Shown here: piece after piece, positions 6,430 to 9,276 of the stretch
Layout: each line of letters opens with the position of its first letter
Numbering within the stretch: the first letter of the stretch is position 1
From: Bacillota bacterium
Lineage (GTDB): Bacteria > Bacillota > Sulfobacillia > RBS10-35 > JAJYVN01
Reading direction: 5' to 3'
NCBI GenBank assembly: GCA_021803205.1
Contig: JAJZMB010000029.1
Location: forward strand, 1,765-65,764
Length of the DNA: 64,000 nucleotides
Program-made: the position numbers and the translations under genes
The notes under the pieces: model-generated
Database searches by the model: none
What the model was told of the DNA's origin: nothing
Seen by the model: only the letters and a program-made list of their open reading frames with translations

Positions 6430-9276
6430 TCAGTCGCCAATCCGGTAGTTTGGCGGTTCACGGGTGATCTGCACGTCGTGCGGGTGGCTCTCGCGCAGAC
6501 CCGCCGGTGTGACGCGCACGAAGCGGCCCCTGCGCCGCAACTCCTCGATTGTCCCCGTTCCGCAATAGCCCATGCCGGACCGAAGGCCACCCTCCAACTG
6601 GAAGACGGTTTCGGCCAGCGGGCCGCGAAAGGGCACTCGGCCTTCCACGCCCTCGGGCACAAGCTTCTGTGCACCTTCTTGGAAGTATCGGTCCCTGCTG
6701 CCGTCCTCCAATGCCCCGAGGGATCCCATGCCCCGGTATACCTTGTACGACCGCCCTTGATAGATCTCCAGTTCACCGGGGCTCTCCTCGGTGCCGGCGA
6801 ACAGGCTCCCGATCATCACGCTGCAGGCGCCGGCCGCGATGGCCTTGGGGATGTCCCCGGAGTATTTCACGCCGCCGTCGGCGATCACCGGTACACCGTA
6901 GCGTTCGGCCGCCCGGCTGCACTCCCACACCGCCGTGAGTTGCGGCATGCCCACCCCCGCCACGATCCGGGTGGTGCAGTTGTGTACCGCGACGCGCTCG
7001 GCGACATAGGAGTGGTCAATGGCCACCTCCAGGTTGTAGACGTCAAGATCCTGATCCGGCTCCTGCTCCACCCGGGCGATCGCCGCCAGAACCCGGCCAC
7101 CTTCCCGAAACATCCGCCGACTGCCGGCGGCATGATGGTGCCGCGGACCGGGCGCCGGGCAGCGACCCAATTCCGGGAAGTCTCCCAAGAAGCGCCGACC
7201 CTCTGCGCCGCAGAGGCACACCGCAAACGTTCCGCGCGCCCCGGCGCGCACCGGGGGCGTGTGGGCGATGCCGGGAAGATACCCGAGCCGCATGAGAATG
7301 TCGGACAGTTGGTGGGCCATCTGCGGCGAGGACGTTTCGTACACCATGCGCCGGCCCTCGGCATCCACCTGGGCCTGCCCGCGCAACAGACCGATGACCA
7401 ATTGCCGCAGATGTTCGGCCGGCTGATCCATCAGTTCGCCCGGGATGCGCCTGCCCGCAGGCGGCGACGGCAGTAGACCCTCCAGGAAGCAGGCCAGGAC
7501 GTGGCTTTCGATCAGCACCGCGACCCCCGGCCCGCAGGGGGCCCCGACGATGCGCCCGCCCCGGTGGCCGAACACCGTGGCGCACAGCTGCAGGACATCC
7601 TGGTGGATCGCGGTCTCATCCTGATGGAAGGCGAAGACGACCTCACGCCGATCCGGGGTGTCCGCGCAGTGCCCGGCCGACAGGTAGTAGCCGATGAGGC
7701 GCATGAAAGCACGGTCGGCGCGCACATGGCGCGGCAGGCGGGTCGTTGTGCAGTGCGCCGCGTCGGTATACTCGCTCGTTGCGGTCGCCAGGGCCGGGTC
7801 TGCACGCCGTACATCGCGCCCGCGTTGCGGCATCGCCGCTCCCGCCTCGAAGATCGCCCCGACTTCGGTGCGGCGCGTCGGCGTCCCACGGCGGTCCGGT
7901 GCGTCGCTCCAGATCCATCGCTCGTCGTAGCGGTGGCCGGGCGCCGCCAGGAGCAGGTCATACGTCGTCGGCATCCAGCCCGTCCTGCGGACGGGCAGAA
8001 CCACCGCATCCCTCGGTCGCCAATCCCCCGCAGCGCGCCATTCCGGCGACCGGCCCCCCCGCGCCGTCCCGGGGGCGATCCAAGGCTCCCGGCCAGCGGC
8101 CGCGGCGCTCGGCACTCCTAAAACCGGGTGGCCCGGCGTCATGCGCAGCGGATGCGGGCAGCCATCCACAGTGAGGCGCACCAGGGGTCCACGGTAGTGG
8201 TGCCGGTAGACCTTTGTCACCGAACGGACATTTCCGGTATGCGTCACCACCATGTCGCCCACTCGCACACCCGCGATGGGCCGGACCGACCCGTCCCCCA
8301 TCAGGATCAATGTCTCCGGGTGATGGCAGATACTACCTGGACCCTGCCCCACCTTGACGGCGTCCACACCAGCCTCGCAGAGGGCGGCGGCTCCCTCGGC
8401 AGTGGAGACGTTTCCGGCGACGATCTGTACACCGCTTCCGCCAAAGGCGGCCTTCACCTCACGGGCGAAGGCGACGACACGGGTGCTGTGACCGTGCGCG
8501 CTATCCACCACCAACGCGTCCGCACCGGCCGCCACAAGGGCCTCCGCCCGCTCCAAGTTCCCGGGTGAGACGCCGATGGCCGCCGCCACCAGTAGCCGCC
8601 CACGCCGGTCCTTGGCCGAGCGGGGATACTTCCGCGCCTTCTCGATGTCCTTGGTGGTGAGGAGCCCTCGCAAATGCCCTGCCGCGTCCACCAGAGGCAG
8701 TTTTTCGATCTTGTACCGGGCCAGGAGGCGCTTGGCGTCTTCGAGCCCCGTACCGACGGGGGCGGTGACCAGGTTCTGGGAAGTCATCACCTCACCGAGC
8801 GGCCGCGCCGGATCCGTCTCGAAACGCAGATCGCGGTTGGTGACGATCCCCACCAGGTGGCCGTGCGGCGCCGGGGCGTCAACGATCGGCACACCGGAGA
8901 TATGATAGCGGCCCATCAACTCCTGCGCGTCAGCGATGGTATGCGCCGGGGTCAGGGAGAAGGGATCGGTGATGATGCCGAATTCAGAGCGCTTGACCCT
9001 GTCCACCTCGGCCGCCTGAGCTTCGGTGGACAGATTGCGGTGGATCACGCCGATGCCGCCCTCCCGGGCGACGGCGATCGCTAGGCGGGCCTCGGTGACC
9101 GTATCCATCGCAGCGCTCACAAAGGGGATTTGTAGACACAGGTCCCGGCTGAAGCGGGTCCGGGTGTCGGCATCGCGCGGGTGGATCGCGGAGGCCGCCG
9201 GGATCAGCGCCACATCGTCGAAGGTCAGACCCAGTGTACCAAACTTCTCCTTGTCCTCGCCGTCCGCCGCGGTCAC
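6430..9276 (-). CDS. guaB: Inosine-5'-monophosphate dehydrogenase, interrupted by an in-frame intein
   Basis: N-extein shows [14 protein letters not shown] pair and VVDSAHGHS...[11 protein letters not shown]-extein shows [17 protein letters not shown]...[17 protein letters not shown]...YRGMGSLGA...EGVEG. The start is GTG 9276 (GGGGGGA 6 nt upstream) or GTG 9291 (track). Confidence 0.92.
6979..8328 (-). mobile_element. Intein (450 aa) with LAGLIDADG-type homing endonuclease domain inside guaB
   Basis: Begins [14 protein letters not shown] (block A) and contains TPGH (block B). Two dodecapeptide-like motifs are present: [13 protein letters not shown] and [13 protein letters not shown]. Ends [21 protein letters not shown], followed by the +1 Cys of CTTR. 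Excision restores GPGSI-CTTR. Confidence 0.85.

Follow-up and report, generated by a model that had tools for sequence, protein, structure and literature searches.

The window analysed here, a stretch of 64,000 nucleotides from the assembly GCA_021803205.1 of a Bacillota bacterium (contig JAJZMB010000029.1, positions 1,765 to 65,764; GTDB class Sulfobacillia), carries a guaB gene whose product, IMP dehydrogenase (IMPDH), is interrupted in frame by 450 additional residues. The insertion point lies between Ile321 and the catalytic cysteine of the enzyme, and the insert ends with ...VAVHN/C, the slash marking here and below a junction with the host protein. A preliminary description, made from the letters of the window, had read this insert as an intein with a double-motif LAGLIDADG domain. 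Its coordinates, its 953-codon frame and the protein strings that it quoted proved exact on translation (Table 1). The gene order around guaB is that of an ordinary chromosome, with no island.

Table 1. Features of the interrupted guaB gene, in coordinates of the window.
Feature	Position	Strand	Remarks
guaB precursor open reading frame	6430..9291	-	953 aa, 102.3 kDa; GTG start; stop at 6430..6432
N-extein (IMPDH residues 1-321)	8329..9291	-	N-terminal half of the barrel and CBS pair
Intein (guaB residues 322-771)	6979..8328	-	450 aa, 49.2 kDa, Cys1 to Asn450
Block A, Cys1 codon TGC	8326..8328	-	first splice nucleophile
Block B, TPGH (intein residues 64-67)	8128..8139	-	Thr64 and His67
Decayed middle region (intein residues 73-203)	7720..8112	-	likely DNA-recognition region
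LAGLIDADG motif 1 (intein residues 209-221)	7666..7704	-	Ala218 replaces the catalytic Glu of the family (..AEG..)
LAGLIDADG motif 2 (intein residues 309-322)	7363..7404	-	Gln318-Ala319 replace Asp-Gly of the family (RGDG)
Blocks F and C-terminal	6979..7041	-	penultimate His449 and terminal Asn450; TIGR01443
Cys+1 codon	6976..6978	-	second splice nucleophile and IMPDH catalytic cysteine; 3TSB alignment
C-extein (IMPDH residues 772-953 through stop)	6430..6978	-	

The two flanks of the insert, the exteins, jointly score 582 bits on the profile TIGR01302 IMP_dehydrog (cutoff 481.5). They match it in two pieces, residues 21-323 and 771-940, and the break in the match falls exactly at 323/771. The Pfam IMPDH model recognizes the flanks with E = 8e-149, and CBS is matched at residues 166-219. 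Once the insert is removed, a 503-aa IMPDH of 53.1 kDa remains, which aligns with the Bacillus anthracis enzyme (PDB 3TSB) end to end and without any gap over the junction (658 bits). The two-piece profile match and this gapless alignment are far beyond chance, and they bear out the proposal that removal of residues 322-771 restores the active-site sequence GPGSI-CTTR. The first residue after the insert, Cys+1, aligns with Cys308 of the B. anthracis IMPDH, the active-site nucleophile acting on IMP to form E-XMP* (PMC11841048). The second splice nucleophile and the catalytic thiol of the host are thus one and the same residue, as had been claimed from the sequence, and the extein retains the signature residues of IMPDH.

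The insert itself belongs to the canonical class-1 inteins and has a double-motif LAGLIDADG domain nested in it. It displays all class-1 splice residues, namely Cys1, the TxxH of block B and the terminal His-Asn followed by Cys+1, and all of them are invariant across the other inteins that we found at the same point of IMPDH (hereafter same-site alleles). Cys1 is present in every allele covering that position, and the Thr and His of block B do not vary, the other alleles reading TPNH or TSNH. Two other assignments, a bacterial intein-like (BIL) domain and a mini-intein, are ruled out by the His-Asn and Cys+1 residues and by the full nested endonuclease domain. Searches with Hint and LAGLIDADG profiles, proposed as a check in the preliminary description, were only partly successful. 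Matches fell in the right places, and the profile TIGR01443 intein_Cterm passed its cutoff (20.5 and 16.7 bits vs 15.6), but the Pfam models did not. The Hint models reached 20-23 bits against gathering scores of 28-36, with Hom_end_hint at intein residues 1-43 and Intein_splicing at 413-450, the latter extending to the very end of its profile, and LAGLIDADG_3 reached 19.4 bits at residues 308-376 (cutoff 22.5). Since this profile evidence is weak, the fold match and the same-site homologues bear most of the weight in identifying the intein.

The AlphaFold2 model of the intein has a predicted template modelling score (pTM) of 0.75, with a predicted local distance difference test (pLDDT) of about 90 or higher in the splicing domain and of about 74-91 in the LAGLIDADG core. 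Foldseek comparison of this model with solved structures identifies the Hint fold: the best matches are inteins, with E-values of 1e-19 to 1e-11, in the order PI-PkoII (E = 8.8e-19), TliVMA, PI-SceI, PhoVMA and PI-PfuI. They are followed by I-DmoI (TMt about 0.7) and WhiA, which match the LAGLIDADG core. The two LAGLIDADG motifs align to the family and are modelled as helices (residues 206-218 and 304-318), which, together with the I-DmoI match, agrees with the double-motif domain originally proposed and with an alpha-beta-beta-alpha-beta-beta-alpha pseudo-dimer whose core the two helices form. Like PI-PkoII (2CW7), TliVMA and PhoVMA (7QSU and 7QST), PI-SceI (1VDE) and PI-PfuI (1DQ3), the guaB intein combines a class-1 Hint domain with a nested double LAGLIDADG domain and is inserted where a housekeeping enzyme is highly conserved. 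It differs from them in its host, which is an IMPDH and not a DNA polymerase or a V-ATPase, in its sequence (only 11-16% identity) and in the absence of the catalytic acidic residues.

Relatives at the same site were sought in one genome per GTDB species with the peptide pattern MRLIGYY[LVT][AS]; the scan is limited by this pattern, so that its counts are lower bounds. At least 14 species-representative genomes carry an intact intein of 451-454 aa at GPGSI/C...HN/CTTR. They include Bacillota/Clostridia metagenome-assembled genomes (MAGs), members of the Chloroflexota (Anaerolinea, Anaerolineales, Oscillochloris and Herpetosiphonaceae) and of the Acidobacteriota (Pyrinomonadaceae and Blastocatellia), and one bin labelled Gracilibacteria; no 100% match to the window was found with the pattern in these representative genomes. 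A scan of metagenomes added at least 14 same-site loci, and a scan of metagenomes with peptides specific to the window found no close relative of its intein. Protein searches contributed P0001, P0129, P0130 (an IMPDH without CBS domains) and P0132. The resulting set of about 30 sequences (L001-L014, L151-L163, L166, P0001, P0129, P0130 and P0132) contains duplicates, L163 being the same as P0130 and L153 about 96% identical to L005. Along the full length of the window intein, same-site alleles show 31-40% identity to it and an unchanged order of domains, and a profile built from 33 of them gives it 512 bits. The same profile, run over all six frames of the window, detected no second intein. 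A weak tblastn match at 21923..22105 (E = 0.006) was absent from this profile scan and was treated as compositional.

Word-indexed searches retrieved only 5 proteins with the intein as query and 8 with a profile of 14 sequences; as these searches under-report, we relied on pattern scans and on phmmer. An exhaustive phmmer search of 1.84 billion representatives gave 3245 matches at E <= 1e-3, with 887 of them reaching E <= 1e-10. Many are long proteins with several separate matching stretches; those that we inspected are intein-containing IMPDHs and glycosyltransferases. Two glycosyltransferase-like proteins, P0151 (847 aa) and P0202 (836 aa), contain related LAGLIDADG inteins (MRLLGYYVAEG..., ending HN/C), and the same intein lineage therefore occupies hosts outside nucleotide metabolism. 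In addition, L163/P0130 (812 aa) bears a same-site intein in a CBS-less IMPDH whose extein is only about 39-50% identical, which indicates that the same-site allele reaches very divergent IMPDHs. In viral contigs, a scan likewise limited by its peptide pattern identified 80 relatives, none of them in an IMPDH and all of them distant (at most 26% identity over the full length), and nothing there points to a phage as the vector.

Mobility is suggested for the family as a whole, which extends over at least three phyla and in which several alleles have a G+C content (GC) well under that of their exteins. Intein GC is 14-16 points lower than extein GC in L005 (0.54 vs 0.70), L011 (0.55 vs 0.69) and L009 (0.37 vs 0.51), and 8 points lower in L013 (0.41 vs 0.49). 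This suggests a comparatively recent horizontal arrival in Anaerolineae and in some Acidobacteriota, unlike the ameliorated window copy, and the relatives in other phyla that have kept the catalytic residues are probably still mobile. Two records of the family call for some caution. The contig JAAUTF010000112.1 (L012), labelled Candidatus Gracilibacteria, clusters in both its extein and its intein with the Oscillochloris allele L007, obtained in the same study, and its locus has a GC of 0.60; it looks like a mis-binned Chloroflexota contig. On the contig of P0002 (L231:492-3025), a guaB bearing a same-site intein is present as two overlapping open reading frames (ORFs) of 506 and 340 aa, the second ending prematurely. 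At 3.4x coverage, this split is probably an assembly frameshift, and it could also represent a decaying allele.

None of the 120 best homologues of the spliced extein contains the insert; they measure 478-533 aa, and the top ones are 82-83% identical to the spliced extein. The nearest relatives found are the syntenic MAGs GCA_021791815.1 and GCA_027459445.1. In the syntenic closest relatives (loci L067 and L070), the enzyme reads ...GPGSI CTTR... without interruption and without an intein, and the empty-site junction is ...GGTCCCGGGAGCATC/TGCACCACGCGC... The window and these two loci share the gene order phoH, 7TM-HD, ybeY, (dagK), era, murC and guaB, continuing after guaB with a GH18 gene on the opposite strand, moeA, moaA, moaC and mog. 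As the closest orthologues are free of the intein, the 450 residues are not a conserved domain of the host enzyme; the preliminary description had named such a conserved domain as a result that would refute the intein.

The endonuclease half of the window intein has decayed, and its splicing blocks are as well preserved as is usual in the family. The family sequence is MRLIGYYxAEG for motif 1 and LLIGALRGDG for motif 2; the window has SAG (E218A) and RGQA (D318Q, G319A) at the corresponding positions, so that the acidic metal ligand that ends each motif is missing from both. This residue is kept in 31 of 32 other alleles for motif 1 and, as Asp, in 29 of 31 for motif 2, and PI-PkoII has Glu and Asp at the positions aligned to Ala218 and Gln318. 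The identity of the window to the other alleles, compared with that of the others among themselves, is 0.51 vs 0.54 in the N-terminal splicing region and 0.43 vs 0.55 in the C-terminal one, and falls to 0.19 vs 0.50 in the middle region and 0.38 vs 0.57 in the LAGLIDADG region. If a position counts as conserved when shared by 13 or more of 14 other alleles, the window has changed 3 of 20 in the N-terminal splicing region, 3 of 15 in the C-terminal one, 20 of 30 in the middle (residues 73-203) and 22 of 67 in the LAGLIDADG core, that is, 6/35 in the splicing regions vs 42/97 in the middle and LAGLIDADG regions (Fisher p = 0.007). The middle region consists for 51% of Gly, Ala, Arg and Pro, with residues 76-91 and 126-198 modelled as disordered (pLDDT < 50), and the conserved family stretches KYxF..K.NxGL.W, NKPSRN.N.ENY and RFGTT.RVIG are absent from it. 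Overall, the window intein is 9-17 points less identical to its relatives than the divergence of the exteins would predict, and its branch is long. Its GC is fully ameliorated (GC and GC at third codon positions, GC3, of 0.70 and 0.81 in the intein vs 0.67 and 0.81 in the extein), whereas some other alleles lie 12-16 GC points under their exteins.

Mutagenesis of the acidic residues of LAGLIDADG enzymes, for instance D218 and D326 of PI-SceI, is known to abolish cleavage. Since the window copy has neither of the two catalytic acidic residues and its DNA-recognition region has decayed, we infer from these precedents that its endonuclease is most probably dead. The view of this element as a classic homing intein is thus upheld for its position before the catalytic cysteine but most probably not for its present activity. 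The opposite possibility, that the LAGLIDADG domain still cuts intein-less guaB and drives homing, could appeal to the preserved two-domain fold, in which the core is modelled with the pLDDT of about 74-91 given above, to the existence of intein-free target alleles in the closest relatives, and to a family that spans at least three phyla with several alleles of low GC relative to their exteins. These traits have to be set against the replacement of both near-invariant acidic residues by Ala and Gln, the change of 20 of the 30 conserved DNA-recognition positions in a region much of which is disordered in the model, and the complete amelioration of GC, and we regard a fully active mobile intein as quite improbable. 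Loss of catalytic residues is also observed elsewhere in the family. L002, from a Bacillota MAG (4001-5356), has E to G and D to G replacements in its LAGLIDADG motifs, an independent loss, and P0129 has lost one acidic residue through a D to N replacement (RGND); the rest of the intein is conserved in both.

We consider it probable that guaB of the window contains a long-resident, splicing-competent but nuclease-dead class-1 intein with a decayed LAGLIDADG domain. By analogy with the established mechanism of class-1 inteins, translation would yield a 102-kDa precursor that is predicted to be inactive, its active-site loop being broken up by 450 extra residues. Cys1 would then undergo an N-S acyl shift, helped by Thr64 and His67 of block B, and the thiol of Cys+1, the future nucleophile of IMPDH, would attack the resulting thioester (trans-thioesterification). 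Cyclization of Asn450, with the help of His449, would release the 49-kDa intein, and an S-N shift would restore the GPGSI-CTTR peptide and produce a 53-kDa active IMPDH. With a dead nuclease, the intein would be an immobile relic that has reached the late phase of the homing cycle, in which the endonuclease degenerates, and it would persist only because any imprecise deletion destroys an important enzyme.

Several points weigh against this scenario. Both splicing and the loss of cleavage are predictions, and the Pfam Hint and LAGLIDADG models stay below their gathering thresholds. Unusual active-site residues do occur in a few functional LAGLIDADG enzymes, and the death of the nuclease is accordingly not proven. 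Two residues in or near the splice blocks depart from the family, N66G (block B) and E437I (block F), and could slow splicing. With a best relative at 40% identity, purifying selection on the splicing half is beyond the reach of a dN/dS estimate. Finally, a second guaB may be present elsewhere in the genome, beyond the 64-kb window. Such a second copy, together with the unusual residues near the splice blocks, would be compatible with a non-splicing insertion or a pseudogene, that is, with 450 residues retained in the protein or with a dead gene, IMPDH being supplied from elsewhere. We hold this to be extremely improbable, as the four essential splice residues as well as Thr64 and His67 are intact, the frame is open over 953 codons, and the extein, at 82-83% identity to intein-free orthologues, retains the signature residues of the enzyme. 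A 450-aa insert in the cysteine loop would preclude activity, and the extein would hence not stay so well preserved if the protein were left unspliced.

The contrast between a conserved splicing half and a decaying endonuclease half also raises the question of whether the intein has been domesticated. Splicing would in that case work as a post-translational switch on guanine-nucleotide synthesis, responding to redox conditions through a disulfide between Cys1 and Cys+1, or to temperature. Other inteins have been argued to splice conditionally, and a case for selective retention is made by Novikova et al. (PMC4760082). Cys1 and Cys+1 are both thiols here, and the intein contains 10 Cys residues. 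However, the same pattern is expected of any selfish intein in an important gene, where splicing is needed and the nuclease is not; moreover, the closest relatives manage without the intein, and we found no evidence specific to regulation. A domesticated, conditionally spliced intein thus seems unlikely. A redox link is proposed because the +1 splice nucleophile is the catalytic thiol of IMPDH: oxidation, through the Cys1/Cys+1 disulfide, or another stress would stall splicing and thereby throttle de novo synthesis of GTP after translation, in an organism whose GH18 and extein relatives suggest a member of the Bacillota. We regard this more specific idea as very doubtful.

In the nuclease-dead relic that we favour, traces of the original homing event could persist in the flanking extein. 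The last five codons of the N-extein (8329..8343, GGT CCA GGT AGT ATC) end in A or T in four of five cases, in a gene with a GC3 of 0.81, and these 15 nucleotides match the Chloroflexota-type allele L012 at 14 of 15 positions. The window and the intein-bearing alleles of Chloroflexia also share a Gln at position -6, the Ser in GNVSTA and the Pro in SGDIPK, which the syntenic intein-free relatives do not have. When the extein DNA on the flanks was examined for a co-conversion tract, only the -30..0 bin favoured L012 (0.87) over the syntenic relative (0.73), and this bin is too short for a conclusion. The codons ending in A or T may represent a faded co-conversion tract, a signal that is not significant alone.

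Two ORFs near guaB overlap on opposite strands. The 807-aa ORF on the plus strand at 3446..5869 owes its 5' end to a high-GC artefact, and only its residues from about 516 to 788 form a GH18 domain; the YaaH-like GH18 protein measures 368-407 aa in the syntenic loci. The minus-strand ORF at 3401..4585, which overlaps it, is the genuine MoeA. Scanned against Rfam, the window gave no match.

That IMPDH can harbour inteins was first reported by Dassa et al. (2009), who described the split inteins IMPDH-1, IMPDH-2 and IMPDH-3 in Global Ocean Sampling (GOS) metagenomes (PMC2677866). These elements are naturally split, IMPDH-1 into an IntN of 106 aa and an IntC of 42 aa, with a gene for a Vsr-like free-standing endonuclease between the halves, and they have Ser at position +1 (PMC11766414, PMC11168065). 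The window intein shares with the three split inteins the host enzyme and a class-1 organization with Cys1. Unlike them, it is contiguous, contains a nested LAGLIDADG domain, uses Cys+1 and occupies a different insertion point; in particular, it lies in a single ORF and not, as in the IMPDH-1 type, in two genes with an endonuclease between them and a Ser+1. The site of split IMPDH-1, which we take to be G/SIC, would lie two residues upstream of the present one. The same-site IMPDH inteins are much closer counterparts, with the identical insertion point GPGSI/C...[VI]A[VA]HN/CTTR, the same domain order and nearly the same length (451-454 aa vs 450 aa in the window). The window copy is unlike them in having lost the acidic residues and the conserved middle region, both of which nearly all of the others keep. 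In ribonucleotide reductase, the most frequent intein site is directly N-terminal to the thiyl-radical cysteine (PMC2677866). In those inteins, as in guaB, the catalytic cysteine of the host serves as the +1 splice nucleophile, in a different enzyme and with a different chemistry.

The preliminary description had left open whether this guaB insertion site was already catalogued. The split Ser+1 inteins IMPDH-1 to IMPDH-3 have been described, as stated above, and the 15 top intein hosts in bacteria given by Novikova et al. in 2016 (PMC4760082) do not include IMPDH. We found no description of a contiguous LAGLIDADG IMPDH intein in the full-text literature searched, and it may be catalogued in supplementary lists. 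NCBIfam has no model for an intein-containing IMPDH, and an exact-sequence look-up of the 953-aa product gave no record. The same-site family appears to be rare, recurring and ordinary, and undescribed in the literature searched.

The practical consequence for annotation is that the 953-aa guaB should not be recorded as a fusion or as a pseudogene. The window intein leaves the knowledge of how inteins work unchanged; it adds to the catalogue of intein hosts a contiguous LAGLIDADG allele located at the catalytic cysteine of IMPDH. The relatives in which the Glu and the Asp are intact are candidate meganucleases against the universally conserved coding sequence of GPGSICTTR. More generally, the same-site family constitutes a compact natural series of the homing cycle: most alleles, in several phyla, look intact in their nuclease, some of them with foreign GC; two have nucleases that appear to have died independently (the window and L002), one is half-dead (P0129), and the sites in syntenic relatives are empty.

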